Numbered from the stretch's first letter, positions 15,720-51,070 are shown. The stretch is 62,201 nucleotides of DNA from an uncultured Dehalococcoidia bacterium (GCA_903844685.1 CAIMUM010000063.1:1-62201); one strand, 5' to 3'. The notes: generated by a model not told the origin, from the letters alone. Made by a program: numbers and translations.

Positions 15720-15889
15720 CATTATTTAAGGAATCCCTGTCCACCAGGTCTTACACGGCATCCACATTTACCGCAATAAGCAACCCAAAAATGTCATAAC
15801 TTCTTAATGTCTTTTTGCTGAATTATATGACTATTACATTCTTAACCATTTAATATATAGCTAATCTATTTTAAAGGAGGAGTTTTATC

Positions 15890-21775: not shown

Positions 21776-21807
21776 ATTACGGTTACCTTTATTGTATTTT
21801 TCACCTT

Positions 21808-22680
21808 TCAGGCTTTCAAGGCCAGGGACTGTAAAACCCCGGCGGGGGAGACCATCAGCCGGTTGAGGCCGAGCTCTTTGGGCGGGATGCCGAGGCACAA
21901 ACCAAGCAATTGCGTTATGTATACGATAGGCATCTCATAGCGCCTGCCCGTTTGCTTTTGCATATCTTTCTGGCGCAGGTCAAGGCTGGCCTGGCACATG
22001 GGGCAGGCCACCGTAATACACCCGGCGCCCGACGCCACAGCCATATCAAGGACTGAACCCGAAAGCTTCACAACCACTTCAGTCCTGGTCAGGTTAAGGC
22101 CTCCTCCGCAACAGTCAACTTTGCCGGGCCAGTCGACGCTCTGCCCACCCATGGCATCTACCAGGCGGTCGAGGATAGTAGGGTTCTCTGCATCGTCAAA
22201 ATGAGTTACATCGTGCGGACGCACCAGCAGGCACCCGTAATAAGCTGCTACCTTCAACCCTCCGAGAGTGTGTGTAAAGCTCTTACGCAGTTTTTCAATA
22301 CCCACGTCTTCGAGCAGTACTTCGACAAGATGCCTCACGGCAACTGAGCCGTCATATGGTTGCCCGACCACGTCGGCTACTCTGGCTCGCATGGCCGGTG
22401 AGGAGGACACCTCGTGGTTTGTCACCTTCATCCGGTTGTAACAAGCCGCGCAGGTGACCACCGTATCAAGCCCCATCTGCTTAGCCAGCAGCATATTGGC
22501 AGCCGGCAGTGAAGCGGCAAGTATCCGGTCGGTCTGGTGTGCGGCAGTTGCCCCACAGCAGGACCATCCCTCAATTTCCACCAGCTCAATACCCAGCTTA
22601 CATGCTACAGCTATGGCCGACTCGTGCATATCACGGGCAGTGGAATGTGACGAGCACCCCGGATAATATGCGTATTTCAT
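21808..22680 (-). CDS. hdrB: Heterodisulfide reductase subunit B-like protein (two CCG domains)
   Basis: Reads YYPGCSSH..WSCCGA and YYGCLLVRP..VDCCGGG. It overlaps hdrC by 4 nt. Confidence 0.85.
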   Translation of the reverse strand: MKYAYYPGCSSHSTARDMHESAIAVACKLGIELVEIEGWSCCGATAAHQTDRILAASLPAANMLLAKQMGLDTVVTCAACYNRMKVTNHEVSSSPAMRARVADVVGQPYDGSVAVRHLVEVLLEDVGIEKLRKSFTHTLGGLKVAAYYGCLLVRPHDVTHFDDAENPTILDRLVDAMGGQSVDWPGKVDCCGGGLNLTRTEVVVKLSGSVLDMAVASGAGCITVACPMCQASLDLRQKDMQKQTGRRYEMPIVYITQLLGLCLGIPPKELGLNRLMVSPAGVLQSLALKA

Positions 22681-23246
22681 TGCTTTTTTCCTTTACCCGG
22701 CATGGCCTTTTCAAAAATGCGCCTTACGGCCTTTTTGTCGGCGCCGGACGGCGGGAGAATGGCCATTTTCCCCTTCTTCAACATGGTGGGGAATTTTTCC
22801 GTATCGCTCATCAACGAGCCGCTCCCGAGCTTGTAGCCGGCGATCATGGACAGGTCGTAGGAGCGTCCGAAAACCCTGACATTGGCCAGGAACATGCGGT
22901 TAAACAGTGGCATGTTGCCTTCAGGCACTTTGGATCCCCTGGCCAGGGCCAAACTGCGCAGGGCATCGATAACCGCAGCGAAATTTATCTGCATCGGGCA
23001 GCGGCCGTAGCAGGTTTCGCAGGAAAGGCACATCCACACCAGGCCGTTCTCCAGGAGCTCGTCCCCAGCCCCCAGGTGCAACCTCCTGATAATCTCCGAC
23101 GGCGCCGACTTCGCCGGTCCGGCCACCGGACAGCCTGCGGAGCATTTCCTGCACTGGTAACAGGCGTCTAAGCTGACGCCGGACATCTCTTCTACAATCG
23201 CCTTGAGGCCAGTCCCCTTTGCTACTTTGTTAATTCTTATCGTCAT
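22677..23246 (-). CDS. hdrC: Heterodisulfide reductase subunit C-like protein (2x[4Fe-4S])
   Basis: Reads CYQCRKCSAGCP and CLSCETCYGRCP. Confidence 0.85.
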   Translation of the reverse strand: MTIRINKVAKGTGLKAIVEEMSGVSLDACYQCRKCSAGCPVAGPAKSAPSEIIRRLHLGAGDELLENGLVWMCLSCETCYGRCPMQINFAAVIDALRSLALARGSKVPEGNMPLFNRMFLANVRVFGRSYDLSMIAGYKLGSGSLMSDTEKFPTMLKKGKMAILPPSGADKKAVRRIFEKAMPGKGKKQ

Positions 23247-23266
23247 ATTTATCCTTCGTACGTCCG

Positions 23267-25924: not shown

Positions 25925-27501
25925 CTGGCCTGCTCCGTATCGTTGCTGTAATCAAGATGCATGAGGAGGTCGGTGCGGCCCCGCAACTCGCTGACCCTGC
26001 GCATACCGAACCTGCGCAGTATCTCTACCAGTTCGATACGCCAGGCGTTATAAAGGTTGATTATCCGTTGTGAGCCCCATTCGACCGTGTACTGCCCCTG
26101 CAGTTCCGCGTCCGTGGTAGCTATGCCGCGCGGGCAGCCCCGTCCGCTTTCACAGCGTGCGCAGCGCAGACATCCCAAAGCTACCAGTTCACCGGTCCCG
26201 ACAACTACGCCGTCCGCGCCGAGGGCGATGGCCTTGGCTATATCATGAGCATTCCTCAACCCGCCGCTGGCTATCAGTGTTATCCTGTCGCGCACACCTT
26301 CACGGGTCAAGAAATCGTGCACTTTGATAATGGCATATTCAATGGGCATAGCGATGTTTTTCTTGGCTATATCCGGTGCGGCGCCGGTGCCGCCGTAACC
26401 GCCGTCCAGGTGAACGATATGCGCTCCGGCTGAATAGCTGCCCACGGCAACCATATCAACATCCGACGGGGTCGAAACCTTGGCTGAGACCAGGGCATGC
26501 CGGTTGATATGCTTTATCCAGTCCATATGTTTCTTATGGTCTTCGATAGAATAAACGCTGTGAAAGGGGAAAGGTGAAAATAGCGAGATGCCGGTAACCG
26601 TTTCCCTCATCCTGGCCACGGATGGTGTGACCTTATCCGCCAGCAGGTGGCCTCCCAAACCCGGTTTGGCGCCCTGCGCGTATTTGAATTCCACGATCCG
26701 CACGCGCTGGATGGTCTCCTCCCGCACACCAAATAACCCCGTGGCAACCTGTGTGATAGTGTGGTCGTCGTAAGGCCTCAGACGCTCCATGTACCCACCT
26801 TCCCCTGTACAGGTAAAGGTGTTGAAGGCCACGGCAGCGCTTGCCTTGGACAGCTGCGTAACGTTGCTCACCGACCCGTACGACATGCCGCCTCCATACC
26901 AGGGCACATCGATTTTGATCTGCGGCCTCCCGTCGTTTCGACGGTTAAGCTCCAGGCTAGTGTCGATATCGTCCGGGCTCAATTCAACCGGCGGCCTGGC
27001 AGGAAATTTAAACCTGATACGGTCAAATCCTCCGCCGGAATTGCCGCATTCATATTCATACCCATACTCGGGCGGAGGAGGAGCGCCCGTCTCGGCCATC
27101 TTCCATGTAGCCAGTATCAGGTCAGGCGTCCAGCGGTAATCGCCCAGCACCTTCATCATGGGATTTTCCACCATGCGCAGCGCCTTATTCGGGCATAAAT
27201 CTACACAATAATGGCCGGTGTCCTTGCAGGCCGGGCCGATACACACATTCTGGTGAGGGGCAGCGAAGTATTTATAGCCCGGCTTGAGAACGTGCACACC
27301 CTGAGGGCATATCTCGGCGCATTTGCCGCATAGCTTGCAATCGGCGCTGCGCCTGATAATATATTTCGCGATCTCATTGCGGTAGCGCGGCGGGGCCGGT
27401 TTAATTACGCGTTGAACCTCCGCCTGCGGCACCATAGTCTCGAGTATACTATCCGGAAGACCTTCTTTAATTATTTTTTCTGGAACCAAAGAGCTTGCCA
27501 A
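25921..27501 (-). CDS. Glutamate synthase FMN/synthase-domain subunit with an N-terminal 2x[4Fe-4S] ferredoxin domain (archaeal split-GltB type)
   Basis: Ferredoxin motifs: CKLCGKCAEICP and CVDLCPNKA. Synthase motifs: KYAQGAKPGLGGHL, LDGGYGGTGAAP, ASGGLRN..GADGV, CLRCARCESGRGCP. The start is uncertain; TTG 27501 lies 6 nt after GAGGAGG, while the track start is TTG 27525. Confidence 0.8.
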   Translation of the reverse strand: MASSLVPEKIIKEGLPDSILETMVPQAEVQRVIKPAPPRYRNEIAKYIIRRSADCKLCGKCAEICPQGVHVLKPGYKYFAAPHQNVCIGPACKDTGHYCVDLCPNKALRMVENPMMKVLGDYRWTPDLILATWKMAETGAPPPPEYGYEYECGNSGGGFDRIRFKFPARPPVELSPDDIDTSLELNRRNDGRPQIKIDVPWYGGGMSYGSVSNVTQLSKASAAVAFNTFTCTGEGGYMERLRPYDDHTITQVATGLFGVREETIQRVRIVEFKYAQGAKPGLGGHLLADKVTPSVARMRETVTGISLFSPFPFHSVYSIEDHKKHMDWIKHINRHALVSAKVSTPSDVDMVAVGSYSAGAHIVHLDGGYGGTGAAPDIAKKNIAMPIEYAIIKVHDFLTREGVRDRITLIASGGLRNAHDIAKAIALGADGVVVGTGELVALGCLRCARCESGRGCPRGIATTDAELQGQYTVEWGSQRIINLYNAWRIELVEILRRFGMRRVSELRGRTDLLMHLDYSNDTEQAR

Positions 27502-28876
27502 AGGTCGCCTCCTCAAGGTCTTCAAAGAATAGGGCCCGGCCTACTTCACCACGCAGGCGGCGGACCTCGCGTATGCCCATGGCTCCCATGACCTCGATCA
27601 ACTGGTCGTGCCATGCAGCAATCAGATTTGTCATGCGCCCGACACCGTACTTGATATCTATCTCCCCGATCAGCGCCGGGCATGACTGGCCGTCATTACA
27701 ATCACGGCAAAGCGTGCACTCCAGGGCTATTAATAATGGCAGGTTGATAGTTACCAGGTCGGCGCCGCAGAGGATCTGCTTGGCCATATGCTCGGCCAGG
27801 GCTATGCCACCGCCTGCCATCAGAGTTACCTCGTTCCTTAACCCGCTTTCCACCAGCGAGTTATGCACACTGCGCACCATGTCCTTGATAAAACGGGGGT
27901 TTTTTTCTCCGATCTCGTTACCGTTATCATCGGCTACCAGGTGCAAAACCTCGACAAACGGTTGGCGGGCATATTCGACTGCGCGTTCAATCCCTCCGGA
28001 ATCCATTTCCACCCTGACCGCAACCACTATGCCGGGGTTTATTTGCTTCAGTTCACGTACGCGCCGTTCCGCGTTTCCGTCGTCGCTTATCTCTACCAAT
28101 CTCATCCCGGTAAGCAATTCACGGCCGGGCAGGGGTGCGGAGGCATCGAGATAAATCGCCAGGTTAGGCAGGTATTGATCAAGGTCATTGCCCGCTAACT
28201 GCCAGTCTTTAGAATCGATAATGGCGATGACGCCTGTCTGCGCCGCCACTATTTTAATAACAGGCAGCAGGTTGGGAAGCCGGTAGCCGCGGGGCAGCAT
28301 ATCGATAATCATGGGCATCGGTATATCCACCAGCGGCGGCAGACCGCCGGCCGGGTTGCCTGCATCGAAGTGGAGCAGGGCGGGTTTTCTGCCGATGTCC
28401 ACAGCCGTGCTGATATACTCGCGCCCATGTATCCCGTCACGGGTAGGGCGCACGATCTCCGACATATCGGTCCACATCGAATCGAAGCCCAGGCCGGAAA
28501 ATCGCCCCCGGTATCCCGCGCCAGAAACCGGTATCTTGGCTGATTCCGCCTGCGCCCAGGTCGTTTCAATTATCTGGGGTGTCCAATATGTATTGCCAAG
28601 CCGCTCATACACAGGGTTGGCCGACAGTGCCAGCAGCCCCTTGGTACATTGCTGCACGCAGGAGAAGCAGCCCATGCACTGGAAGAACACGGCATCCATC
28701 TCACGAAGCCCGCGGATGTACGACATCTCTTCCCTGTAGCGGTCGAAAACGCAGGCTTTCTTAACGCAGTTATGGCAGTTGGCGCAATCTTCGCGCCAGT
28801 CCACCACGCCGATTTTGCCGATACGCGGCCGGCGCGGGGGGATGGGTTGAGTTTTGATGTGATATTTATCCGGCAT
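27467..28876 (-). CDS. Degenerate paralogue of the GltS FMN-domain subunit, with an N-terminal Cys-rich ferredoxin-like region
   Basis: Cys-rich region: CANCHNCVKKAC and CMGCFSCVQQC. The C-terminal part, AGGGIALAEHMAKQILCGADLV..CTLCRDCNDGQSCP, parallels the neighbouring subunit. The QGAKPG.GG substrate/FMN loop is not recognisable. Confidence 0.65.
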   Translation of the reverse strand: MPDKYHIKTQPIPPRRPRIGKIGVVDWREDCANCHNCVKKACVFDRYREEMSYIRGLREMDAVFFQCMGCFSCVQQCTKGLLALSANPVYERLGNTYWTPQIIETTWAQAESAKIPVSGAGYRGRFSGLGFDSMWTDMSEIVRPTRDGIHGREYISTAVDIGRKPALLHFDAGNPAGGLPPLVDIPMPMIIDMLPRGYRLPNLLPVIKIVAAQTGVIAIIDSKDWQLAGNDLDQYLPNLAIYLDASAPLPGRELLTGMRLVEISDDGNAERRVRELKQINPGIVVAVRVEMDSGGIERAVEYARQPFVEVLHLVADDNGNEIGEKNPRFIKDMVRSVHNSLVESGLRNEVTLMAGGGIALAEHMAKQILCGADLVTINLPLLIALECTLCRDCNDGQSCPALIGEIDIKYGVGRMTNLIAAWHDQLIEVMGAMGIREVRRLRGEVGRALFFEDLEEATFGKLFGSRKNN

Positions 28877-28891
28877 AGGTATTTACCTTAT

Positions 28892-29794
28892 TCAAATCGC
28901 CGCTGAAATAAGCGCGGGTACAACAGTCTCGTTGCCTCCCGAAAATATGTGTATACCGCGCAGGCCCGGCAAACCCTTAAGCTGCTTGATTATCCCGGCG
29001 CAGATAGCCATGCCCTCCTTGAGCTGCGCCTCTTCATTTCCGGCAGATTCCAGGCGGGAGATCACCTCATCCGGTATATTGAAATCCGTGAAGGTTCCAT
29101 TCAATTTCTTCGCTTCAGCCGCTCCGGTCAGTGGCAACACGCCCGCCAGAATGGCAACTTTTTCGGTGAGGCCTTCGCCGCGGGCCGTCTCAAGCCACCG
29201 TTTGAATTCTTCAATATCAAATACGGCCTGCGTTTGAATGAAGGATGCCCCGGCCTTCACTTTCTTCTTAAGGCGGATAATATTAAGTTCCAGCGGCTTA
29301 AGGTAAGGATTGGCAGCAGCCCCCGCCAGCATAGAAAAAGCCCCCTCGATCTTAGTTCCGTCCAGCAGCAAACCCTCGTCGCACATTTTTTTTACCGTCG
29401 CGATGAGCTGGATTGAATCTATATCAAAGACGTTGGCGGATTCAGGGCAACCTACCAGTGCCTGATGATAGCCGGAAAGGCACAGCACGTTTTTTATACC
29501 CAGGGAGGCCGCTCCCAGCAGGTCGGACTGCAGTGCAATGCGGTTCCTGTCCCGCGTAACAACCTGGTAAACTGGTTCAATTCCGGCGCGGCCCAATATC
29601 ACCGATGCGGCAAGGCTGGACATGGCCACACCGTAATGGTTATCAGCCACATTCACCGCAACAGGGCCATTTTTAAATATACGGGCGCAGTCTTCAACTA
29701 TTTGCGTACCCGTGCCGGTCCGCGGCAGGTATTCCGCCGTGACAATAAACTCTTTACCGCCTATCTTATTGGCCAGTGCGCTATCAGGTTTCAT
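28892..29794 (-). CDS. metF: Methylenetetrahydrofolate reductase (acetogen-type MetF)
   Basis: 300 aa. Reads FIVTAEYLP..VNVADN..VYQVVTRDRNRIALQSDLLGAASLGIKNVLCLSGYH, with a typical MTHFR TIM barrel. Confidence 0.85.
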   Translation of the reverse strand: MKPDSALANKIGGKEFIVTAEYLPRTGTGTQIVEDCARIFKNGPVAVNVADNHYGVAMSSLAASVILGRAGIEPVYQVVTRDRNRIALQSDLLGAASLGIKNVLCLSGYHQALVGCPESANVFDIDSIQLIATVKKMCDEGLLLDGTKIEGAFSMLAGAAANPYLKPLELNIIRLKKKVKAGASFIQTQAVFDIEEFKRWLETARGEGLTEKVAILAGVLPLTGAAEAKKLNGTFTDFNIPDEVISRLESAGNEEAQLKEGMAICAGIIKQLKGLPGLRGIHIFSGGNETVVPALISAAI

Positions 29795-30282: not shown

Positions 30283-31296
30283 TTAAACCGTTTTTATTTT
30301 ATAAAGTTCCTCGAAGGGGACGAAATTTTTGTATTCAATCAAGGCGCTCATGGCGTGCGATTCCACTTCTATCCCGGCCTCCTGGACGGCGGCCAACGGG
30401 TTCAGGCCGCCGATTACTACCATGCCTGCCCGCCCCGGCTCAACCGGCATCTCGCAGACAGGCTCACTAACACCGCCGATAATAAAGATGCCGTTCATAC
30501 CGGCTTTATTAAGCTTCAAGGAGATATCCCCTGCCTTCGGACGGCAAATTGCCGGTATCTCGTGGAAATTTGCCAGCAGGCTGCCCTGGCCGTTTTTTAC
30601 AACCTGCCCAACCGAAGTCATTTTGGCCTTTATAAAGACCTCGGCCGGGTCAAGGGAGCATCCGGTGTAATGTATTAAATCCACAAATCTCCAGGGTTGG
30701 TGGCCCCACATCTGCAGCAACCCGCCAAACCTGGCATTCACAGGAACGCAGGCCCTCAGCAACGCACCGTTCACTACTATGCTGCATACCGTGACCAGTG
30801 CTGCGGTGTCCTCCGGGACCATAATATCGCCGATTTGTTCACCGCTGCGGGCCTCCATAACCAGGCGGCTTGCACATAGACGCGCCGAAAATACGGGCGC
30901 CATAATCTGCAGCGCCTTCTTGAAATCCCGCCTCCGTATAAACGATACATTCACCGGCACCAGCCCCGCCCGTTTATCAGCATCGAATGTGGTCAGGACC
31001 GCTAACTGCTCTATCCTTGTAATGGAGAAGCCCACTTTTTCCTTGACCATTCCCTGCTTGAGCTCCTTGAGTCCGAGTTGTGTGATCTGCCTGCCATCGC
31101 GCCGGCCTGCCAGGTGCGTCAACCCGTTATCATCGGTAACCTTCAGGTGATATCGCACCGCCCGCTGACCCAGGTCAACACCCAGATCACGAAGCTTGCG
31201 CGCAATCACTATCGAACCCAAAGGCTGCGGCGAGTTTGCCAGCACCTTGAGGATGCTAAAGGTCTTTTTCTCCACGTTCTGCGTAGTGAATGTCAT
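30283..31296 (-). CDS. nrpR: NrpR-family regulator (winged HTH plus two DUF128 domains), homologue of the archaeal nitrogen repressor
   Basis: Reads FSILKVLANSPQPLGSIVIARKLRDLGVDLGQRAVRYHLKVTDDNGLT, followed by two NrpR-type domains. I moved the start to ATG 31296 because a consensus promoter (31334-31362) lies inside the longer track ORF. Confidence 0.75.
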   Translation of the reverse strand: MTFTTQNVEKKTFSILKVLANSPQPLGSIVIARKLRDLGVDLGQRAVRYHLKVTDDNGLTHLAGRRDGRQITQLGLKELKQGMVKEKVGFSITRIEQLAVLTTFDADKRAGLVPVNVSFIRRRDFKKALQIMAPVFSARLCASRLVMEARSGEQIGDIMVPEDTAALVTVCSIVVNGALLRACVPVNARFGGLLQMWGHQPWRFVDLIHYTGCSLDPAEVFIKAKMTSVGQVVKNGQGSLLANFHEIPAICRPKAGDISLKLNKAGMNGIFIIGGVSEPVCEMPVEPGRAGMVVIGGLNPLAAVQEAGIEVESHAMSALIEYKNFVPFEELYKIKTV

Positions 31297-31333
31297 ATTA
31301 CTATTATAACGGCTTATGGAAGCCAGTTGCCGT

Positions 31334-31362
31334 ATTATAGCAACAGAATGAGGCGCTGTCAA
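31334..31362 (-). promoter_or_regulatory. Perfect consensus sigma70 promoter in front of nrpR and the operon
   Basis: Minus strand: TTGACA (31362..31357), a 17-nt spacer, then TATAAT (31339..31334). Confidence 0.7.
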
Positions 31363-35303: not shown

Positions 35304-35333
35304 TTGACAGCCGCTCCCACCGGCCAATACAAT
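35304..35333 (+). promoter_or_regulatory. Promoter of the riboswitch-controlled unit
   Basis: TTGACA (35304-35309), an 18-nt spacer, then TACAAT (35328-35333). Confidence 0.55.
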
Positions 35334-35356
35334 ATCCCCACAACTGAATAGTGTGT

Positions 35357-35453
35357 CATGGCGGCCGTGAGCGATTACGGCCTTAATTGGACAGCAATAC
35401 GGTGTAAGTCCGTTACAGCCCTGCCTGCTGTTATAGTCAGAACGCCTGCCATG
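35357..35453 (+). promoter_or_regulatory. Cobalamin (B12) riboswitch aptamer
   Basis: P1 pairs catggc (35357-62) with gccatg (35448-53). The core elements are ggtgtaagtccgt (35401-13), acagccc..gctgt, and a B12-box-like agtcagaacgcctgcc (35435-50). Confidence 0.8.
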
Positions 35454-35500
35454 CAATCAAGCGCCTTCGCAGTGAACGGGGGCAAATATTTTGTTATGTA

Positions 35501-35540
35501 AACCCCCGCTGCCGGAAGGCAGCGGGGGTTTTAAATTTTT
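35501..35540 (+). terminator. Riboswitch expression-platform terminator
   Basis: Stem aacccccgctgcc / ggcagcgggggtt with a ggaa loop, followed by ttaaattttt. It lies 18 nt before the RBS and ATG at 35558. Confidence 0.8.
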
Positions 35541-35557
35541 GGAAAAGGAGGCCTTCA

Positions 35558-36568
35558 ATGAGACGAAGTTTAATCTGGATAGCGGCACTGGCTTTCGCAA
35601 TAGGATGCCTGCTGCTGGCCTGCACACAGCAACCGCCGCCCGCGCAGCCTGCCCCTCAGCCCGCAGGTGCGGCCGGAGAGGTTAAGGAACAACCTGCCCC
35701 GGCTCCCGTAAAAGAATCACAGGAGCCGCCTCCGGTCTTCCCTATCACAGTGATAGACAGCCTGGGAAGGAAAGTGACAATCGAACACCTGCCGCAGCGC
35801 ATCGTATCGCTTGCCCCGAGCAACACGGAGATACTCTTTGCGCTGGGGCTCGACGACCGGATAGCGGGCGTCACGGATTATTGCGACTACCCGGAAAAGG
35901 CCAAACTCAAGCAACATGTAGCCGGCTACATGACCCCTGACCTCGAGAAGCTGGTGATGATAGCTCCCGACCTGGTGCTGGCGGAGTCGATCCATGAGAA
36001 AACCGTGCTGCCCGCCCTGGAAAAAGTCGGCCTGAAGGTGATCGTACTATCATCCCACACTATGGACGAGATAATCAACAATATCACACTGGTGGGGCAG
36101 GTGACGGGCAGCAGCGCGGCTGCTTCCCGGTTAACAGGGCAGTTATCTGCCAGGATAAACACTATTACTTCGAAAACAGCCACGTTGCCCGTTGATAAGC
36201 GTCTGCGTGTAATGTATGTAATCTGGTATGACCCCGTCTGGACGATGGGCGGCAAAACGTACATCGACGACCTGATCACCAAGGCAGGCGGGATAAATAT
36301 ATTTTCCACGGATTTTGAGAAATCCCGCATCGTATCGCCGGAATCTATCGTCAATAAGAACCCTCAGGTGGTGATAGTTACAGGCATGGGCGCAAGCGCC
36401 GATGCCATAGCGGGTAACCTCAAGCAGCAGAACTGGATGCAGTCCACCGAAGCAATTAAAAATAACAGGGTTTATAAACTCAGCGATTCCAACCTGATTG
36501 AACGTCCCGGCCCCCGTATCGTCGATGGACTGGAAGAGGTGGCAAAATTGCTGGCTGCTGTGAACTAA
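35558..36568 (+). CDS. btuF: BtuF/FecB-type periplasmic-binding-protein lipoprotein (probable corrinoid-binding component)
   Basis: The lipobox is LLLAC, followed by a Pro/Ala-rich linker. PBP type-2 pattern: RIVSLAPSNTEILFALGLDDRIAGVTDYCDYP..PDLVL. It sits directly downstream of the B12 riboswitch. Confidence 0.75.
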   Translation: MRRSLIWIAALAFAIGCLLLACTQQPPPAQPAPQPAGAAGEVKEQPAPAPVKESQEPPPVFPITVIDSLGRKVTIEHLPQRIVSLAPSNTEILFALGLDDRIAGVTDYCDYPEKAKLKQHVAGYMTPDLEKLVMIAPDLVLAESIHEKTVLPALEKVGLKVIVLSSHTMDEIINNITLVGQVTGSSAAASRLTGQLSARINTITSKTATLPVDKRLRVMYVIWYDPVWTMGGKTYIDDLITKAGGINIFSTDFEKSRIVSPESIVNKNPQVVIVTGMGASADAIAGNLKQQNWMQSTEAIKNNRVYKLSDSNLIERPGPRIVDGLEEVAKLLAAVN

Positions 36569-36570
36569 AT

Positions 36571-39429
36571 ATGCCCGGGCAGCACCAGGCAGGGACTGTA
36601 TTAAGGGCACTGTCAGCCCTGACAGCGGTATTTATTTTTCTTACCGCCATACCGTCCGCTGCCGCAACGGGCCAGGCGGGCGCAACCGACCTGAAATGGC
36701 ATAAAATCGATACCCCCGGGTGCCTGCCGATAAGGAACGATATCGTCAACCCCAGCGATATCAGACGCTTTGCTGTGGCAGATGACGGCAAGTCCCTGTG
36801 CGCGGTGGACACAGCCAACCGTGACCTCGCCAGCGGCCGGCGAGCCATTTACAGGTCTTCTGATTGCGGCGTTTCCTGGACCGATGCCCCCGGCATGTAT
36901 CTTTTCCAGTCTATGAGTTCAGCAGAAAAAATCAATTTCCGCGCCTGGGATATCGCGGTAGCCCCTGACGATCCGCTGATCATGGCCGCAGTGACCGGTA
37001 ACGCCGCCTCAGATCTGCCCGGAAACGCCTGGTATACGGACAACGGCGGTTTCACCTGGTATGACCTTGGTTGCACCCCAGCCGCCTATATCAGCAGCAT
37101 CGCGATCTCCTGCAATGCGACCAGCAGATTTATTGCTATCGGAACACGGAACGGCGCCGGTGGCGGCAACGTTTTCCTGCGCAACTTGGACAGGATGGGC
37201 TCATGGCAACCACAGCACCCGGGTGGTGATGTACTGGTCATCAGGTTTTCTCCCAATTACAGTGAAGACCTGTCCATAGGCATTGTGTATTCCACCATCA
37301 AGGGAACTTTTTACAACGTCGGCCTTCACGACCCCGCCTTAAACATAATTGACTGGTCTGCGGTTTATGTCAATTCTCCGCTGTGCCTGGGTAGCGGCGG
37401 AGTGTCACCCACTGCTGCTCAAATAATCTCGGCGGACCTATCCTTTCCTTCCGATTATAACGGCCAGGCGCCGGCATTCAACCGTTGCTATATCAGCATC
37501 GACGATGCCGGAATTAGCGGTAAAGGCGGCATATATCGCCTCGATTACAACGTACCTCACCGTATTTTTGAATCCACACCCGCGAAGCGTATCGCCAGCA
37601 TAGCCTATTACGGCACCTATACCAGCGGTAAATTGCTAGCAGGCGAAGTGCTCGGGCAATCCTTCACAGCGACGGTTAATACCTGGTTCACCGACGCGCC
37701 GGTTACATGCCCGAATACCTGCTGGTACAGTGCTTTAAAAAAGGCGACCGGCGCCGCAGGTTCCGATAATTGCTCAGGCAGCGGCAGCGGCAATGCCAGC
37801 GTAGCCTGGCAGGCCGGCGGCGAGGATGCTTACATAGTCACCTGCAGCAGCGCAACCCCGGTCGCGGGTCCCAACTGGCCACTCCCTTTCCGCACCGGCC
37901 GTTCCCTTGATGAATCGGCTTTTTCCGTCAGTCGGGACAATGGCAAGACCTGGAACCAGCTCTCGCTTATAGATACGCAGATAGCAACCTTCACAGACAT
38001 ATTGCCTTCACCTGATAGCTCAACCATATTCCTCGCATCGGTAAACCGTAACACAGGCTGCTGTGGCTTTGACAGCCTGTGGAGAAGCGCCGACCGGCCA
38101 GCTTACTCGCGCTGGGAGAGGGTGTTGTGCGCGCTGACAATAGATTCGTTTTGCACGGAAAACCAGACCGACCTGGCTATTTTGCGCATGCCGGCCGATT
38201 CACCCGGCGGGAATTATATAGCATGGTGCGCGGTTGGCACACGGAACATATTAACCAGCGATAACCGGGGGCAGACCTGGAGGCAGGTCAGACCTAACTG
38301 CTTAGCCTGCGACCTGGCCTGGGAAAGCAGCGACACAATGTACCTGCTCAACCCGGCTGGCATAGTTCAGAAACTCACTTCCAATGGTTCGGCCTGGTCT
38401 TATGGTCCGCTGGTGGTCACCGGATTGGGCTCAGGATACAGTATAACAACAGACCGCACGGCGGCCACACCCGACAACGACGGCGGCCGCATCGTAGTCG
38501 CGGGCACCGGTGAAGGTGATGCGGACGTCGCTTACTCGGTCGACGGGGGGAAGAATTTCAAAATAATTGCCGCGCCGCTGCCGGTACGCGGCAATAGCTT
38601 AGTAATATGCAGTTCCAGCTTTAACAGCGACGGCACGATACTTGCCATTAACCAGGGAGGCATGTTCGCCTGGGGGATATACACGGGAAAGAGTGATTGG
38701 GAAGAATGGTGGGGCGGTGCGGGCTACCCCAGTCCGGTAACATGCATAGCCACAGCCAGGAACTCCAGCCTTTACTTCACCACTCCGGCCACCTGGGGGC
38801 AGGCCATTCCCTACATCCGCTGGTGCTCTGCCACCGCCGGACTGGATCCCGCCGTCTCCTTTGGCGATCCCGCATCCCCAACGACGCGGCTGAGGACCTC
38901 CGGTGGCACTTTCTCCGGCGAGCCCATACTCGTCTGGGCTATAGACCAGCGTGCTTACAACAGCAGCGAAGGCAGCCTATGGTTATATGCAGACACGCTA
39001 TCCTGGAACGGCCCCAGCCTAATCTCGCCCTCCAGCCAGGCCGCTATAAGCTACGATACTGTGACCGGCCGCGCCGGCCAGATAGATTTGCGCTGGAAAC
39101 CCATATCGTTATCCAGGGGCTACGAGATACAAATCGCCGCGGATGCTGATTTTACGCTGCTGATGGCGACCATCGGCGGCGGATACTCCGGCCCGTACTA
39201 CTATCCCAGTGATTACAATGCTCCAGCACTCTTCATCCCGCCCGGCGGGGGCAATGTCACCGATTCAAAGGGCAATTCGTGGAGCGTCCCGGGACTGGAG
39301 GCCGGCCGCGTTTATTACTGGAAGGTGAGCGTCCAGGATGTCCTTACGGGTGACGCGGTAACCAGCCCGCAGTCCTCACGTGAGAGTTTCAGCGTCAGGC
39401 CGGGGTTCCCCGTGAGGTCAAGGTACTAA
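36571..39429 (+). CDS. Secreted 952-aa Asp-box (BNR) beta-propeller protein with a C-terminal FN3-like domain
   Basis: Has a signal peptide. Five Asp-box-like motifs: SSDCGVSW, TDNGGFTW, SRDNGKTW, SDNRGQTW, SVDGGKNF. The C-terminus reads IDLRWKPISLSRGYEIQIA. Its start is 2 nt after the btuF stop. Confidence 0.7.
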   Translation: MPGQHQAGTVLRALSALTAVFIFLTAIPSAAATGQAGATDLKWHKIDTPGCLPIRNDIVNPSDIRRFAVADDGKSLCAVDTANRDLASGRRAIYRSSDCGVSWTDAPGMYLFQSMSSAEKINFRAWDIAVAPDDPLIMAAVTGNAASDLPGNAWYTDNGGFTWYDLGCTPAAYISSIAISCNATSRFIAIGTRNGAGGGNVFLRNLDRMGSWQPQHPGGDVLVIRFSPNYSEDLSIGIVYSTIKGTFYNVGLHDPALNIIDWSAVYVNSPLCLGSGGVSPTAAQIISADLSFPSDYNGQAPAFNRCYISIDDAGISGKGGIYRLDYNVPHRIFESTPAKRIASIAYYGTYTSGKLLAGEVLGQSFTATVNTWFTDAPVTCPNTCWYSALKKATGAAGSDNCSGSGSGNASVAWQAGGEDAYIVTCSSATPVAGPNWPLPFRTGRSLDESAFSVSRDNGKTWNQLSLIDTQIATFTDILPSPDSSTIFLASVNRNTGCCGFDSLWRSADRPAYSRWERVLCALTIDSFCTENQTDLAILRMPADSPGGNYIAWCAVGTRNILTSDNRGQTWRQVRPNCLACDLAWESSDTMYLLNPAGIVQKLTSNGSAWSYGPLVVTGLGSGYSITTDRTAATPDNDGGRIVVAGTGEGDADVAYSVDGGKNFKIIAAPLPVRGNSLVICSSSFNSDGTILAINQGGMFAWGIYTGKSDWEEWWGGAGYPSPVTCIATARNSSLYFTTPATWGQAIPYIRWCSATAGLDPAVSFGDPASPTTRLRTSGGTFSGEPILVWAIDQRAYNSSEGSLWLYADTLSWNGPSLISPSSQAAISYDTVTGRAGQIDLRWKPISLSRGYEIQIAADADFTLLMATIGGGYSGPYYYPSDYNAPALFIPPGGGNVTDSKGNSWSVPGLEAGRVYYWKVSVQDVLTGDAVTSPQSSRESFSVRPGFPVRSRY

Positions 39430-39520: not shown

Positions 39521-40240
39521 ATGTGCATCAAATCAATGCAAGAAGACATCCGCGCCGCCATGGAGCGCGACCCGGCGGCGCGCAGCGCCTGGGAGGTTTT
39601 TTTCCTTTACCCCGGGCTTCACGCGCTGTGGTGGCACCGCATCGCCCACTTCTTCTACCGGCACAGATGCTATTTCACGGCGCGCCTGATCTCGCAGGTC
39701 AACCGCTTTTTCACGCAGATAGAGATACACCCGGGTGCCACCATCGGCAGGCGTTTCTTTATCGACCACGGCGCGGGCGTGGTAATAGGCGAAACCTCGG
39801 AGATAGGCGACGACGTGCTGATGTACCAGGGGGTAGTGCTGGGAGGCACCACCCTGGCGAAAAAGAAACGTCATCCCACCATCTGCAACCAGGTGGTCAT
39901 CGGATCGCGCGCTATCATCCTCGGCGCCATCACCATCGGCGAGGGCGCGCGCATCGGCTCAGGTTCAGTGGTGATCAAATCCGTGCCGCCCGGCGCGACC
40001 GTTGTAGGTGTGCCCGGCCGCATCGTCGAAGAGCAGCGCGAGGCCAGGATAGACCTCGACCATAGCCGCCTCCCCGACCCCGTAGCCGAGGCCATCAGGC
40101 TGGTGCTGGCCGAGCAGGACAAGCTCGAGGACCGGATAATAAAGCTGGAAGAATCAGCCGGGCTGACCGCGCCGGAAAACGAGCTTAAACCCCTGGAATC
40201 GAAGGTCAAACAGGAGTTTGACCCCAAATACGATATTTGA
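39521..40240 (+). CDS. cysE: Serine O-acetyltransferase
   Basis: Reads [21 protein letters not shown], then [31 protein letters not shown] hexapeptide repeats. The start is either 39521 or 39536. Confidence 0.9.
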
Positions 40241-41371: not shown

Positions 41372-41701
41372 ATGGCTGAAAATATAAAAAGTGTAAGCGA
41401 AAATGATTTTAAGGCAATGGTGCTGGACTCACAGCAGCCGGTGCTGGTGGATTTCTGGGCGGTCTGGTGCGGTCCCTGCAGGATGGTCGCACCGATCGTG
41501 GACGAACTGGCCGAACAGTACAAGGATAAAATGGGCTTCGCCAAGGTCAACGTGGACGATGCGCCCAAGATTGCCTCGAGCTACAACGTGATGAGCATCC
41601 CCACACTGATCGTCTTCAAGGGAGGCAAGCCCTTCGAGCAGGTGGTCGGCTATAGGCCGAAGAAAGATATCCAGAAGCTCATCGATAAGGCTTTAGTGTA
41701 A
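41372..41701 (+). CDS. trxA: Thioredoxin
   Basis: Reads VLVDFWAVWCGPCRMVAP; 109 aa. Confidence 0.95.
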   Translation: MAENIKSVSENDFKAMVLDSQQPVLVDFWAVWCGPCRMVAPIVDELAEQYKDKMGFAKVNVDDAPKIASSYNVMSIPTLIVFKGGKPFEQVVGYRPKKDIQKLIDKALV

Positions 41702-41703
41702 TA

Positions 41704-42408
41704 GTGGGCCAATTAAGCGATCTTACTTACTGGACTGCCATCGGCGCCGGTCTGCTCTCTTTTTTCTCGCCCTGCGTACTGCCACTGGTCCCGGCCTACA
41801 TTGCCAACCTGGCAGGAGCGTCGGCTATCGATGACACCCAGAAAAGAAAGATATGGCCGATTTTGCTGCACAGCATCGCGTTCGTGCTGGGGTTTTCCAT
41901 CCTGTTTATCCTGATGGGCGCATCGGCAGGATTGATCGGCTCCGCGATAACAGCTTATGCTGAGACCCTTCGCATCGTATCCGGCGTCGTGGTAATCATT
42001 TTCGGCATATTCCTCATCGCCGCCTACAAAATACCCTGGCTTAATTACGAAAGACGCCTGCACCTGCAGCATGCGCGTAATCCTGGCTATGTTCGATCGA
42101 TGCTGATCGGCGCCGCCTTCTCGGTAGGCTGGACCCCCTGCATCGGGCCCATCCTCGGCTCCATCCTCTTCATAGCTTCGTACACTCAGGAGACCACCAA
42201 GGGAGCACTGCTGCTGGCGGCGTACTCGCTGGGCTTGGGCATACCTTTCCTGCTCATCGGGCTGGCCTGGAGCTACATAATGCCTTTCTGGAAAGGCCTT
42301 AACCGTCACCTGGCGCTTATTTCTATCATAAGCGGTATCCTGCTCATAATAGTCGGCATATTGATGCTCACGGATCAGCTTACCTGGCTGAGCCGTTTTG
42401 CGACCTGA
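41704..42408 (+). CDS. ccdA: CcdA/DsbD-family transmembrane thiol-disulfide electron transporter
   Basis: Six TM helices, with FSPCVLPLVPAY and WTPCIGPILG. Confidence 0.9.
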   Translation: MGQLSDLTYWTAIGAGLLSFFSPCVLPLVPAYIANLAGASAIDDTQKRKIWPILLHSIAFVLGFSILFILMGASAGLIGSAITAYAETLRIVSGVVVIIFGIFLIAAYKIPWLNYERRLHLQHARNPGYVRSMLIGAAFSVGWTPCIGPILGSILFIASYTQETTKGALLLAAYSLGLGIPFLLIGLAWSYIMPFWKGLNRHLALISIISGILLIIVGILMLTDQLTWLSRFAT

Positions 42409-42427
42409 AGCGTTGAATTAGGAGAAT

Positions 42428-42946
42428 ATGATTATGAAATCCTTTACACTCCTCTTACTGGCAACTGCCGTGGCTGTCAGCCTGTTTGCAGGTTGTGGCG
42501 CACCTTTGCAGGCATGCCCGAAGATCGGCGATAAGGCGCCGGATTTCACCCTGCCCGGCCTGGATGGTAAGAGCATCAGCCTGAGTAGCTTCGCCGGCAA
42601 GCCGGTTATCATTAATACCTGGTCTGTAAGTTGCATCGAATGCAAAAAGGAAATGCCCTATTTCAGTGATATCGGCAAGCAATACGGGGTACAGGGACTG
42701 GTTATTTTGTCTGTAAACACTCTGGACAGCACAGGTACAATAAAAGATTTCCTCACCAAGAATGGTTACGACTTTACAACGGTGATAGATTTAAAAAATG
42801 AAATCTATAAGAAATTCTGCTGTCCCAAGAATGCCGACCCGAACACGTTCTTTATCGGCACGGACGGAACTATCAAATCTATCAAAATCGGCGGATTTGC
42901 GACCAAGGATGACCTGGTCACAGAAGTGAAGAAAATCATACAATGA
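42428..42946 (+). CDS. TlpA/ResA-like thiol-disulfide oxidoreductase lipoprotein (CIEC active site)
   Basis: The lipobox is LFAGC. Reads APDFTLPGLDGKSISLSSFAGKPVIINTWSVSCIECKKEMP. The start may instead be ATG 42434. Confidence 0.8.
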   Translation: MIMKSFTLLLLATAVAVSLFAGCGAPLQACPKIGDKAPDFTLPGLDGKSISLSSFAGKPVIINTWSVSCIECKKEMPYFSDIGKQYGVQGLVILSVNTLDSTGTIKDFLTKNGYDFTTVIDLKNEIYKKFCCPKNADPNTFFIGTDGTIKSIKIGGFATKDDLVTEVKKIIQ

Positions 42947-43211
42947 TGCCCGTTAAATAGCCTACTCATCAATTTAACGATTAATAAATTGGATACTTCG
43001 CGACTGGAGTACGCGTATTTCGAAAACTATACAGTATGTCTTGAACACCTTGGTCAAGCATAACAGTCAAACGGTCGCTCAGCATACATACGTGATGCAA
43101 TATCTGGATGTTTCCTTATCATCAAAGAATCGGGGCGACTTTCGTCATATTTCAAAGAACGATTATACTATAGGCTGATTGTTATTTTATTAACCAGGAA
43201 GAACAAACACT

Positions 43212-43796
43212 ATGAAAGATACTAAAATCAACCAATTATTATGGTTACTTATGCCGGTGATTATTATCCTGATATCCGCGGTTGCCATTATCGACCGCGT
43301 CGTGCACGCCAGCCCGGCCATCAGTCAGCCCGCGGTAGTGACCAAGGCTGACACACAGACTGATATAAACATCGGCAATAGAATCGGCTTCACAGCGCCG
43401 GATTTCACCCTGCCTACTGTGGATAAAAGGGAGATCAGCCTGAGCGATTACCGTGGAAAGCCGGTTATCCTGAATTTCTGGGCCACCTGGTGCGGCCCCT
43501 GCCGCTATGAAGTACCTGCTTTTAAGGCCTTCTCTGAAAAATACACAGCAGATGACGTGGTGGTCATCGCGGTCAATACACAGGACGACCCGGACAGCGC
43601 TTTAGGCTATGCCAAAGCAGACGGGCTTAAATTCGTTATACCGGTTGACCCCCGCGGAACCGTTGCGAATATGTACAATGTCAGGGGTCTGCCCACCACT
43701 TTTTTTATAAGCGAAACAGGGATCATCACGTCCATCAAAATCGGCCCGTTTCTCAGTATTGATGAAATGGAGGAGCGGATGGCCTCTTTCAAATAA
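43212..43796 (+). CDS. Membrane-anchored TlpA-like thioredoxin-fold protein (WCGPC)
   Basis: Has an N-terminal TM helix. Reads APDFTLPTVDKREISLSDYRGKPVILNFWATWCGPCRYEVP. Confidence 0.85.
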   Translation: MKDTKINQLLWLLMPVIIILISAVAIIDRVVHASPAISQPAVVTKADTQTDINIGNRIGFTAPDFTLPTVDKREISLSDYRGKPVILNFWATWCGPCRYEVPAFKAFSEKYTADDVVVIAVNTQDDPDSALGYAKADGLKFVIPVDPRGTVANMYNVRGLPTTFFISETGIITSIKIGPFLSIDEMEERMASFK

Positions 43797-43876
43797 ACCT
43801 GATATATTTGACAAATTCGGTTATAATAATTCAAATATATTATGCACATTCAGCCGGTTGAACTTGTTAACACGAT

Positions 43877-45691
43877 ATGCCGATAGATGATAATAAGGGT
43901 ATAATTGACAGGCAGAAGGTAGTCAGGAAGCTTGAGCTTGATAAGTGCCGCGAAGAGCTGGCTACACTGCAAACGAGGTTCAACGTTGGCGAACTGCCGG
44001 CAGGCGCTTACTTAGAAAGAAGCAAAGCTCTGCTTGAGAAGATAGCAATACTTGAAAAGGAAGTTAACAATATACCGATTTCCATGATAGACAGATTTAA
44101 GAAAAACCGCGCGCTTTTCACTATTATAGGCGTCGTCCTTTTCGGGCTGTTGCTCTGCGGGACTATTATCCTGCTGGTCCCCAGTACCGGCAGTGGCGTC
44201 GGCAATATAGCACCGGACTTCGTCATGCAGTTAAGCGATGATAATTCCCGGGCTTTAAGCTCGTTCCGCGGCAACACAGTGGTGCTGGTTTTCTGGGACC
44301 GCGATTTCTGGGATGACCAGTTCTTCTACGTGAATGGTGTCGAACGCAAGCTCTACATACCTGATAAGCTTAACCAGCTTTACCAGAAATCCGGGGGGAA
44401 AGACCCGGCCATCATTGCTATTGCCTCAGGCGCCAGCAGCAGCGATATAGAACACCTGGTAAAGGATTACGAGATAAGCTTCCCTGTAATCGGGGACATG
44501 TCAGGCAAGCTGCGCTCGAGCTACAACATATCCTACGAGCCGACCCTGGTTTTCTTAGATAAAAACGGCATAATACGCGCCAGGGTGGAAGGGCCCGTTA
44601 CAACTCTTTCCGACCTGGAGCAGGCCGTCCTCGCCGTTTCGACCGGCGCCAGGGTCAACCCATCCGTTCCACCTATAAGCGACGTTATAGTACAATCCAA
44701 TAATGAAAAAAGCGCCGTAGTTAACTGGAGCACTTCTCAGCCCTCAACGACACAGGTGGATATTGATGGTAAAAATATCCAGACGGTGATAACCGCTGCG
44801 CCGGTGACGCTGCATTCGCTCACCATCGCTGACCTTGATCCGGGCGCTTCGTATCATATCAGGATCCTCTATAATATCAACAACATCAACGTCTCGGAGC
44901 ACTCATTTAGCGCGCTCGGGGATACGGTCATTTCGAAGCGGTTCCTGGCCACGACATCCTCCAAGGAGACCAGCTACCCGGAGATATCAGGCGCAGGGAC
45001 AAGCTCTGTCACTGACTCGGCCATGCTGATAACCTGGAAGACCGACGAACCGGCTACGGGAGAAGTGGATTACGGGCTTGACAGGAATTACCGCGATACA
45101 ACCAGCCAGGGTAACAGCCTCTCCATCTGGCATACCGTCAAGATCGACAACCTGCTTCCCGAAACGCAGTATTATTTGAAATTGCGGTCAAAGGATGCCT
45201 CCGGCAAAGAATCAACACAGGAGCTTCAACCAGCTAAGACCCAGAGCATCGTTGATATAGGTCCTTTCATTGGCAAACGCGCCCCCGACTTTACGCTCAC
45301 TTCACTCGACGGCAGTAAATACAGCCTGAGCCAATTTTTAGGCCGCAAGGTGCTGCTCAATTTCTGGCTGGAAGGCTGCCCCGCCTGCGAGGCGGAGATG
45401 CCGCTCCTACAGGCAACATTCGATAAATACGGCCGCGATGATGTCATAATACTGGCAGCCAACGTGCGCGGCGACGTCGACAAGGTGAGACTATTCATTG
45501 ACACACAAGGCCTGACCTTCCCCGTCCTGCTGGATACGGAAGGCATAGCAGACAGCCTGTATACACCGCCGGCTTTCCCGACAACATTCTTTATCGATTC
45601 CACAGGCATTATCCGCGATATCCAAGACCAGCGCTTCCAGACTACCAGCGAGATTGACGATGCGCTGGGCAAATTGGACTGCTGCAAATAG
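43877..45691 (+). CDS. 604-aa membrane-anchored protein: Cys-less Trx-fold domain, two FN3-like domains, then an active TlpA-like domain (CPAC)
   Basis: Has a TM helix at about aa 78-100. Domain 1 reads APDFVMQL..VVLVFWDRDFWDDQ, with no CxxC. The FN3-like motifs are SAVVNWSTSQPSTTQVD and AMLITWKTDEPATGEVDYG. Domain 4 reads APDFTLTSLDGSKYSLSQFLGRKVLLNFWLEGCPACEAEMP. The protein ends in DCCK. Confidence 0.75.
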   Translation: MPIDDNKGIIDRQKVVRKLELDKCREELATLQTRFNVGELPAGAYLERSKALLEKIAILEKEVNNIPISMIDRFKKNRALFTIIGVVLFGLLLCGTIILLVPSTGSGVGNIAPDFVMQLSDDNSRALSSFRGNTVVLVFWDRDFWDDQFFYVNGVERKLYIPDKLNQLYQKSGGKDPAIIAIASGASSSDIEHLVKDYEISFPVIGDMSGKLRSSYNISYEPTLVFLDKNGIIRARVEGPVTTLSDLEQAVLAVSTGARVNPSVPPISDVIVQSNNEKSAVVNWSTSQPSTTQVDIDGKNIQTVITAAPVTLHSLTIADLDPGASYHIRILYNINNINVSEHSFSALGDTVISKRFLATTSSKETSYPEISGAGTSSVTDSAMLITWKTDEPATGEVDYGLDRNYRDTTSQGNSLSIWHTVKIDNLLPETQYYLKLRSKDASGKESTQELQPAKTQSIVDIGPFIGKRAPDFTLTSLDGSKYSLSQFLGRKVLLNFWLEGCPACEAEMPLLQATFDKYGRDDVIILAANVRGDVDKVRLFIDTQGLTFPVLLDTEGIADSLYTPPAFPTTFFIDSTGIIRDIQDQRFQTTSEIDDALGKLDCCK

Positions 45692-50800: not shown

Positions 50801-51070
50801 GGGCCGTGCACCGGCTGTCGATAGTGTTCTTCAGCTTACGTCTGCCAGCCAGCTCCGGCCAGGCATACCTGCGTCACCCGGAGCTTACTATTTACCGCTG
50901 CTTCCTTCCGGACCTGACGGGATTCATAGACCTCCGCCGCGCAAGACCCAACCCTCAACGCCACTTAACCGTTGCAGTTCTGAAAAACAGGACCTCGAAC
51001 CGGTATTCAGCCCCGCTATAGCGGATCTCGGGTACAGGGCACCGCTGGTTCCCCGCTTAGCACGGCCCAA
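50801..51070 (-). ncRNA. ffs: Signal recognition particle RNA, long (Bacillus-type, Alu-domain-containing) form, ~270 nt
   Basis: The minus strand carries the conserved domain IV sequence tcaggtccggaaggaagcagc. The 5' end, gggccgtgctaagcggggaaccagcggtgccctgtacc, resembles B. subtilis scRNA. The terminal helix pairs gggccgtgc with gcacggccc and is followed by ttattttt. An upstream promoter has TTGAAA (51104..51099), a 17-nt spacer and TAGTAT (51081..51076). Confidence 0.9.

Follow-up and report, generated by a model that had tools for sequence, protein, structure and literature searches.

A cobalamin riboswitch ahead of a BtuF-like lipoprotein and a tandem beta-propeller protein in Dehalococcoidia: a candidate module for extracellular corrinoid capture

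Accessory vitamin B12 capture proteins have, to our knowledge, so far been characterised mainly in Bacteroides. In that genus, the surface lipoproteins BtuG, BtuH, BtuJ and BtuK bind B12 and have their genes in btu loci under riboswitch control (PMC6143338, PMC10404256, PMC8941943, PMC13616437). The locus described here, which may encode an accessory protein of comparable role, was found in a 62,201-nucleotide stretch of DNA from an uncultured Dehalococcoidia bacterium (GCA_903844685.1, CAIMUM010000063.1:1-62201), referred to below as the window. Positions 35304-39429 on the plus strand form one unit, in which a promoter-like site, a leader, a terminator and a ribosome-binding site (RBS) are followed by an open reading frame (ORF) for a BtuF-like protein and by a second ORF of 952 residues.

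The preferred reading is that this unit is corrinoid-repressed, and that the 952-residue product, a secreted propeller protein, assists BtuF from outside the membrane by capturing corrinoid or handing it over. The model as a whole is given a probability of about 0.6. The features on which it rests are as follows.

35304-35333 (+), sigma-70-type promoter-like site, TTGACA-18-TACAAT, 11 of 12 matches, a presumed promoter
35341-35467 (+), cobalamin riboswitch aptamer of the short-P6 type, from Rfam RF00174, clade model R1 and covariation
35357-35362 and 35448-35453 (+), the two strands of P1, CATGGC/GCCATG, from sequence
35363-35382 (+), P3
35419-35424 (+), L5
35435-35450 (+), B12 box, AGTCAGAACGCCTGCC, from sequence
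35463-35483 (+), P13 regulatory hairpin, GCCUUC-loop-GGGGGC, from fold and covariation
35500-35541 (+), intrinsic terminator, a 14-bp stem at 35500-35531 with 10 G-C pairs and then a T-run, from fold
35545-35551 (+), RBS of btuF, AAGGAGG, from sequence
35558-36568 (+), BtuF-type substrate-binding lipoprotein of 336 residues, Pfam PF01497 (Peripla_BP_2)
36571-39429 (+), secreted tandem beta-propeller protein of 952 residues, whose ORF starts 2 nt after the btuF stop; signal peptide at residues 1-33, N-terminal propeller at about 40-430, C-terminal propeller at about 445-812, FN3-like beta-sandwich at about 815-945

Most of these parts had been named in the original prediction, which was made from the sequence alone, and its promoter, strong terminator, BtuF/FecB-type lipoprotein and large secreted protein with five Asp-box motifs and an FN3-like tail are all recovered here. 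Its cobalamin aptamer requires more discussion. The match of RF00174 to the leader covers the whole model (1-189), and only 4 nt stand where the model has the 73-nt P6 extension; the leader including the P13 hairpin occupies 35341-35485. In a search of 351 nt, the match scores 26.7 bits with an expectation value (E) of 4.4e-5, under the gathering score of 31.5. For this reason the element was missed in the whole-window Rfam scan, which was made at gathering thresholds, and a separate search of the leader in E-value mode was required for the match to surface. The lack of an Rfam hit in the former scan was thus rejected as evidence that the riboswitch is absent. The RF00174 score alone would make the element only probable, and it is the comparison with related loci (numbered with the prefix L below) that settles the call. 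The covariance scan of the leader that had been suggested as a check gave a full-length match at a sub-threshold score, and the aptamer itself is upheld by P1, the B12 box, covariation and related copies that exceed the threshold.

The conserved core consists of AGTCAGAACGCC at 35435-35446, in the B12 box, and ACGGTGTAAGTCCGT at 35399-35413, the GGUGnAAnUCC loop, both of which are near-invariant in 81 copies. Rfam thresholds are reached by equivalently placed copies in other loci, with 36.4 bits in L017, 33.7 bits in both L014 and L015, and 37.0 bits against RF01689 in L013. A covariance model of the clade (R1), built from four copies and covering the aptamer and the following hairpin, was searched against 96 sources and gave 81 matches of 77-169 bits; the window copy scores 168 bits. 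Each of the 81 is in the coding orientation, a short distance 5' of one of three genes (btuF, the propeller gene or btuC), and there are none in loci that hold only paralogues of the propeller gene.

Covariation was examined in 73 distinct sequences. In this alignment 95.5% of cells are paired, a percentage that is inflated by the fitting of the sequences to the model, and 16 of 34 pairs have changes on both sides, a count that the fitting does not inflate. Compensatory changes back helices P1, P3, P4, P5 and P6, and in P3 all six pairs covary. None of 500 shuffles reaches the observed values, and slid partners are 36-51% paired. A kissing loop between L5 and L13 is characteristic of cobalamin riboswitches. 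Here it joins CUGC of L5 (35421-35424) to GCAG in the P13 loop (35469-35472); its four pairs are 100% paired in the 73 sequences, and one of them varies (CG in 63, UA in 8 and UG in 2). As far as comparative sequence evidence goes, the window element is confirmed as a real cobalamin riboswitch.

The element shares with clan CL00101 (RF00174 and the short variant RF01689, named AdoCbl-II in Rfam 15) the B12 box and GGUGnAAnUCC core, the P1 to P6 architecture, the L5-L13 kissing loop and a terminator-type expression platform. Unlike RF00174, it has no P6 extension (4 nt against about 73) and its score is under the cut-off. A further difference from the clan is that the Dehalococcoidia clade often has two copies in series per btuF-propeller locus. 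The short cobalamin riboswitch found here is clade-specific and is often used twice in one locus.

Relatives of the propeller protein split into orthologues of 43-83% identity (56 distinct loci, 8 of which are cut at the 5' end) and paralogues of 30-41% identity (35 loci). A btuF homologue (identity 50-65%) is directly upstream in 47 of the 48 distinct orthologue loci that have upstream DNA, and at least one cobalamin riboswitch governs the propeller gene in all 46 informative ones. Among the 35 paralogue loci, neither a btuF directly upstream nor a riboswitch match was found in any. The co-occurrence of the two genes behind B12 riboswitches in other genomes, on which the original prediction had been made to depend, is therefore extensive.

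The number and position of riboswitches vary between loci. A single riboswitch before a tightly spaced btuF-propeller pair is found in 17 orthologue loci including the window, while 26 have two, of which the first precedes btuF and the second is in the 300-520-nt spacer ahead of the propeller gene (L013, L017, L023-L025, L027, L029, L030, L037-L040, L046, L048, L049, L051, L053, L055-L059, L062, L064, L065 and L068). For example, those of L017 lie at 4491-4635 and 5786-5929. Altogether, a riboswitch stands immediately upstream of the propeller gene in 29 distinct loci. An obvious separate promoter is lacking for most second copies, which may therefore provide a further checkpoint for transcripts that read through. 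In L060, the propeller gene is alone and has its own promoter and riboswitch. As btuF is the last gene of a cbiP-cobT-cobS-cobU operon in L020, the propeller gene is the only one of the two with a riboswitch in front.

The neighbours of the pair are informative. In six loci (L020, L024, L025, L027, L040 and L065), cobT-cobS-cobU is directly upstream. The order in L056 is riboswitch-btuF, riboswitch-propeller and riboswitch-btuC-btuD-cbiB, and L038 has the same order with a second btuF paralogue ahead of btuCD-cbiB. Flanking genes otherwise vary widely between loci, and the pair thus moves as a unit. The original prediction had described the BtuF of the window as an orphan; this is so within the window, but since the same pair adjoins btuCD-cbiB or the salvage genes cobTSU in other genomes, it is a local arrangement. 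Taken together, the strict pairing, the riboswitches and the btuCD and cob neighbours argue that the propeller protein is a core member of a Dehalococcoidia B12 regulon, and it is close to certain that both genes are under B12-riboswitch control. In two related loci, the pair is separated by an ORF of 282-288 residues (L062 2879-3727 and L066 3067-3933), the product of which has a CNFDCRAC motif resembling the CxxxCxxC of radical S-adenosylmethionine enzymes.

At its N-terminus, the first protein of the unit carries a signal peptide and a lipobox-like LLAC, followed by a Pro/Ala/Gln-rich tether of about 40 residues. It matches PF01497 with an E of 5.7e-38 and 131 bits (cut-off 27.5), which assigns it to the Peripla_BP_2 (cluster A) fold. 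Among its relatives of solved structure are 5ysc (E 3e-29) and 1n2z (E 6e-18), which are B12-binding BtuF chains, and its top PDB match is 4m7o, deposited as an 'iron-binding protein'. Against the NCBIfam BtuF model NF002894 it scores 101.7 bits, under the equivalog cut-off of 234, and its best NCBIfam match, TIGR04281 (PGF-CTERM-anchored binding protein), gives 153.7 bits against a cut-off of 325. Because both scores are under their cut-offs, the protein is regarded as a relative of BtuF rather than a curated equivalog. Its ligand, judged from the context of the gene, would be a corrinoid.

Similar to the BtuF proteins of E. coli and Vibrio (1n2z, 5ysc), it has the Peripla_BP_2 fold with B12-binding chains among its closest solved relatives, is under B12-riboswitch control, and is encoded by a gene that adjoins btuCD in L056 and L038. 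This is in contrast to its long Pro-rich tether as a lipoprotein, its score under the NCBIfam equivalog cut-off and the separation of the window btuF from btuCD, in all of which it differs from them. L038 encodes, at 5152-6081, another BtuF paralogue (49% identity to the BtuF of the window), together with btuC-btuD-cbiB behind a third riboswitch. The presence of this second BtuF with btuCD suggests that the propeller-linked BtuF may be a distinct paralogue, perhaps one dedicated to the propeller protein.

Could the leader be non-functional as a riboswitch in this genome, so that the genes are constitutive or otherwise controlled, or could the BtuF-like protein bind haem or a siderophore instead? 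The window copy scores 26.7 bits where 31.5 is the threshold, the name of 4m7o points to iron, and the BtuF equivalog cut-off is missed. However, the window copy has every core element and helix of the 73 distinct copies, it reaches 168 bits against the clade model, and its promoter and terminator are kept, while cobalamin riboswitches, btuCD-cbiB and cobTSU surround the orthologues. These alternatives are therefore considered very improbable.

How the leader might control transcription can be proposed from its parts. The promoter-like site ends 7 nt 5' of the riboswitch, and in related loci almost every riboswitch of a btuF leader has, like that of the window, a TTGAC-N17-TAnnAT element 7-9 nt on its 5' side. 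Nearly all riboswitch copies are then followed by an A/U-rich spacer, a CCCC...GGGG hairpin and a U-run; in the window, the terminator hairpin has a fold z of -4.3. The 3' arm of P13 is a conserved G-run, complementary to the C-run that opens the 5' arm of the terminator, and a three-way competition is therefore proposed. The promoter at about 35304-35333 would drive a leader that folds as a short-P6 cobalamin riboswitch. At low corrinoid, GGGGG of P13 would pair with CCCCC in the terminator 5' arm, and polymerase would read into both genes. When corrinoid is bound, L5 would kiss the P13 loop and sequester the P13 G-run, so that the terminator at 35500-35531 could form and transcription would stop. 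This off-switch logic is what the arrangement predicts, and the antiterminator is put forward only as a proposal, because it is short and does not appear in minimum-free-energy folds.

Five btuF leaders (L057 176-327, L058 2543-2690, L059 2535-2681, L064 2513-2660 and L068 2540-2687) have no terminator, and in each the RBS is within about 15 nt after P13. This suggests that, in this sub-clade, control may be translational rather than transcriptional.

The second protein of the unit is predicted with confidence as a propeller protein. An AlphaFold2 model based on 69 homologues has a predicted local distance difference test (pLDDT) value of 89.4 and a predicted template modelling (pTM) score of 0.86, and consists of an N-terminal helix, which is the signal peptide, two beta-propellers and a C-terminal beta-sandwich, which is the FN3-like tail. 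Five Asp-box-like motifs lie at residues 96, 156, 454, 562 and 656. In Pfam, no family is above threshold and only BNR_6 and Sortilin-Vps10 appear below it. The signal peptide has no lipobox cysteine.

A search of the PDB with Foldseek places GH74 xyloglucanases and tandem propellers at the top (7kn8, 6p2l and 6mgj; E 1e-18 to 1e-16), with template modelling (TM) scores of 0.26-0.37 and 12% identity. Given these low scores and identity, the likeness is at the level of fold class only. One might nevertheless suppose that the protein is an extracellular enzyme, such as a GH74-like or sialidase-like glycosidase or another hydrolase, which releases or remodels corrinoids or their carriers before uptake by BtuF. 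In keeping with this, GH74 xyloglucanases are the best structural matches (E 1e-18), Asp-box motifs are common among glycosidases, and an NCBIfam family named as a glycosylhydrolase is matched weakly (34.6 bits, cut-off 175). The 12% identity and low TM-scores speak against it, however, as do the lack of any glycoside-hydrolase family at threshold, the lack of carbohydrate-uptake genes nearby, and the occurrence of Asp-box tandem propellers in non-enzymatic receptors (sortilin/Vps10). Searches of PDB sequences with the single sequence and with a profile gave no GH74 match. The enzyme explanation was down-weighted because the likeness is at fold level only and the TM-scores are low, and is improbable. 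The protein resembles the GH74 xyloglucanases and the sortilin/Vps10 tandem propellers in having two consecutive beta-propellers with Asp-box motifs, and differs from them in its 12% identity, in the absence of a family-level sequence match above threshold and in a context of corrinoid uptake, not glycans.

The comparison with Bacteroides can now be made. BtuG-type propellers have the Pfam accession PF16819 (PMC13398666), and membership of the 952-residue protein in this group was rejected, since it has no PF16819 match (E <= 0.01) and a different architecture; the original prediction had likewise seen no obvious relationship. It has two propellers and an FN3-like domain where BtuG, a lipoprotein that caps a BtuB transporter, has a single seven-bladed propeller, and it is not a lipoprotein. 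Like BtuG, BtuH, BtuJ and BtuK, it would be an accessory extracytoplasmic protein in B12-riboswitch corrinoid-uptake loci, beside btuF and btuCD, and by analogy with them a capture-and-hand-off relay ahead of BtuFCD is proposed; with BtuG in particular it shares the beta-propeller. Unlike the Bacteroides proteins, its orthologues have a C-terminal transmembrane anchor, which the window clade has lost, and its corrinoid binding is presumed. No gene for a TonB-dependent BtuB-type transporter was seen in any locus examined, and full-text literature searches returned no paper on this family or on a B12-regulated propeller protein in Chloroflexota.

The propeller protein is probably an accessory surface protein of a B12 uptake system, and it is unrelated in sequence to BtuG. 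We infer its surface location, its physical partnership with BtuF and its corrinoid binding, the last from association. In the preferred model of capture or hand-off, the BtuF-type lipoprotein, on its long Pro-rich tether, would deliver corrinoid to a BtuCD importer encoded elsewhere. The double-propeller protein would act outside the membrane, capturing corrinoid or handing it to BtuF, a role that would resemble those of Bacteroides BtuG, BtuH and BtuJ on a tandem-propeller scaffold.

The wider family bears on how specific this role may be. A profile search of 1.84 billion representative proteins gave 24,139 relatives with E < 1e-3 and 3,074 with E < 1e-30, among which the whole btuF-linked clade is one representative at 50% identity. 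The relatives have a common plan in which a signal peptide and two propellers are followed by one or two FN3-like domains, then by a Pro-rich linker, a C-terminal hydrophobic helix and a basic tail, as would be expected of stalked cell-surface proteins or proteins of surface-layer (S-layer) type. This tandem-propeller surface-protein scaffold is widespread in Dehalococcoidia metagenome-assembled genomes (MAGs). Among 48 orthologues, 42 have the Pro-rich linker, C-terminal transmembrane helix and basic tail, while six, all of the window clade, have neither the second FN3-like domain nor the anchor. In the two of these six whose loci were read, that of the window protein and that of P0007, the propeller gene and the 3' end of btuF overlap or are at most 2 nt apart. 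Anchor loss goes with this tight translational coupling to BtuF, and one may speculate that the protein is retained through a complex with BtuF or serves as a soluble scavenger.

In the orthologues, 59 residues are invariant and differ in the paralogues. They are concentrated at residues 540-945, in the second propeller and the FN3-like domain, and two insertions, TPDNDxG (633-639) and PPGGGxVxDxxGNxW (890-904), are found in orthologues only. It is plausible, on these sequence patterns, that residues 540-945 are the site of a specific function.

Paralogues of the propeller gene recur in another pair, in which a He_PIG immunoglobulin (Ig)-domain protein of about 725 residues precedes a paralogue of about 880 residues (L012 1095-8604, L008 13-7474 and L013 9394-14914). 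In the Dehalococcoidales MAGs L012 and L008, this pair is just downstream of cobT-cobS-cobU and has no btuF, and the L012 locus has no Rfam match at gathering threshold. In L013, it directly follows the btuF-propeller module. L004 (3-7869) also has cobT-cobS-cobU upstream of a propeller paralogue, in a comparison that excludes the intervening genes.

The main rival to the capture model takes the propeller protein to be a structural paralogue of the envelope or S-layer type, added or swapped in at low corrinoid, that holds BtuF at the surface or makes the protein layer passable for large solutes and itself binds no corrinoid. It draws on the huge Chloroflexota superfamily (3074 clusters with E < 1e-30) with signal peptide, propellers, FN3 domains, Pro-rich linker and anchor, and on paralogues without B12 linkage of the btuF-riboswitch kind. 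A general envelope protein would, however, hardly be expected to need a dedicated one-to-one BtuF partner and a separate riboswitch; the invariant residues and insertions peculiar to the orthologues speak for a specific molecular function; and the window clade keeps the pairing despite the loss of the anchor. On balance a purely structural role appears unlikely, though less so than an enzymatic one.

A known protein of the same bacterial class has some bearing on this rival. The Dehalococcoides mccartyi lineage is thought to have a protein surface layer and no outer membrane. Its putative S-layer protein DET1407 is annotated as a BNR/Asp-box protein (PMC6646388, PMC5102406), and one of these papers reports riboswitches, with no type given, upstream of tceA and DET1407 (PMC5102406, citing Rowe et al. 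2015); both the annotation and the riboswitch fit a structural role. DET1407 is an abundant envelope protein from the same class of bacteria as the propeller protein, and its annotation names the repeat that is seen in the latter. A query of concatenated published peptides yielded no DET1407 candidate, the peptides are absent from 267 fetched proteins, including relatives from the profile search of 1.84 billion representatives, and no protein named for D. mccartyi is present in a list of relatives or among the matches of a search with a Dehalococcoidales paralogue.

Several observations weigh against the capture model itself. The window riboswitch stays under the Rfam gathering score, the terminator dominates the minimum-free-energy folds, in which the antiterminator of only 5-6 bp is absent, and a search for RNA-seq runs that might reveal termination or read-through found none, with only pond and peat DNA metagenomes holding the sequence. 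The 952-residue protein has no known B12-binding motif or domain (neither PF16819 nor DUF4465), PDB sequence searches with the single sequence and with the family profile gave noise only and no relative, and its structural matches are generic tandem propellers (TM-scores only 0.29-0.37). The superfamily is very large and mostly without a B12 link, so the scaffold may be structural and its regulation alone tied to B12. Finally, the loss of the anchor in the window clade leaves retention at the surface unexplained.

A more specific form of the capture model is tentative, and is held with somewhat less than even confidence. According to this, the btuF-linked propellers would be an independently evolved, high-affinity extracellular corrinoid receptor, carved from a family of tandem-propeller surface proteins and borne, in most genomes, by a C-terminal stalk next to a dedicated BtuF on its tether. 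With the anchor lost in the window clade, the protein may there be a released 'corrinophore', comparable to a haemophore, or may be retained in a 1:1 complex with BtuF.

For the encoded proteins, every relative comes from a Chloroflexota or Dehalococcoidia MAG; the window DNA is present in pond and peat metagenomes. On the 5' side of the unit are TatD-family, eIF-2B-family and MFS-family genes. As had been predicted, the next gene on the 3' side is cysE and no btuC or btuD follows.

39521-40240, cysE (hexapeptide/serine-acetyltransferase-like), next gene 3' of the 952-residue ORF

No btuC, btuD, cob gene or propeller paralogue was found elsewhere in the 62-kb window, and the importer must therefore be encoded elsewhere in the genome.

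Other features of the window were noted in passing. At 897-8891, three large secreted-looking proteins have Ice_binding-like domains with He_PIG, SprB or Big_5 Ig-like repeats, and a PRC-barrel/DUF1508 protein is encoded between them. A long operon-like run on the minus strand (16174-29794) includes MTHFR (28892-29794), two glutamate-synthase-like proteins, a GXGXG protein, Fer4 and CCG (HdrB-like) proteins and a 1537-residue multi-domain flavin/FeS (iron-sulphur) oxidoreductase (17285-21898), and is completed by an MTHFR C-terminal-domain protein (16174-16842). An NrpR-type regulator is encoded at 30283-31362. The cluster at 41372-45691 is of the thioredoxin-DsbD-AhpC/redoxin kind, and one of its products, of 604 residues, has two redoxin domains flanking FN3 and purple-acid-phosphatase-N-like domains. 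L017 is syntenic with the window, with this redox cluster and the MFS, IF-2B, TatD and cysE genes around the btuF-propeller pair. The sole Rfam match in the window at gathering threshold is the bacterial large signal recognition particle (SRP) RNA at 50804-51065 on the minus strand (187 bits). The G+C content falls to 0.42 at 14001-16000, from a window mean of about 0.54; this dip surrounds a gene for an OmpR-type response regulator (14973-15719) and adjoins one for a PAS histidine kinase (13310-14857).

Cultured Dehalococcoidia, among them the dechlorinators Dehalococcoides and Dehalogenimonas, reportedly require an outside source of corrinoids, being unable to make them, and the supply of corrinoid is considered limiting for their growth and for the performance of bioremediation. 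Corrinoid salvage genes have been described in Dehalococcoidia (PMC13390414). A family that is strictly paired with BtuF, and that has its own B12 riboswitch in many genomes, is a concrete candidate for the missing extracellular step of corrinoid acquisition. In addition, the clade riboswitch model would be useful for the annotation of MAGs in which Rfam thresholds miss copies such as that of the window. If the capture model is true, and if DET1407 is part of this system, the best-known organohalide respirers would have a major envelope protein that serves as a device for B12 acquisition.

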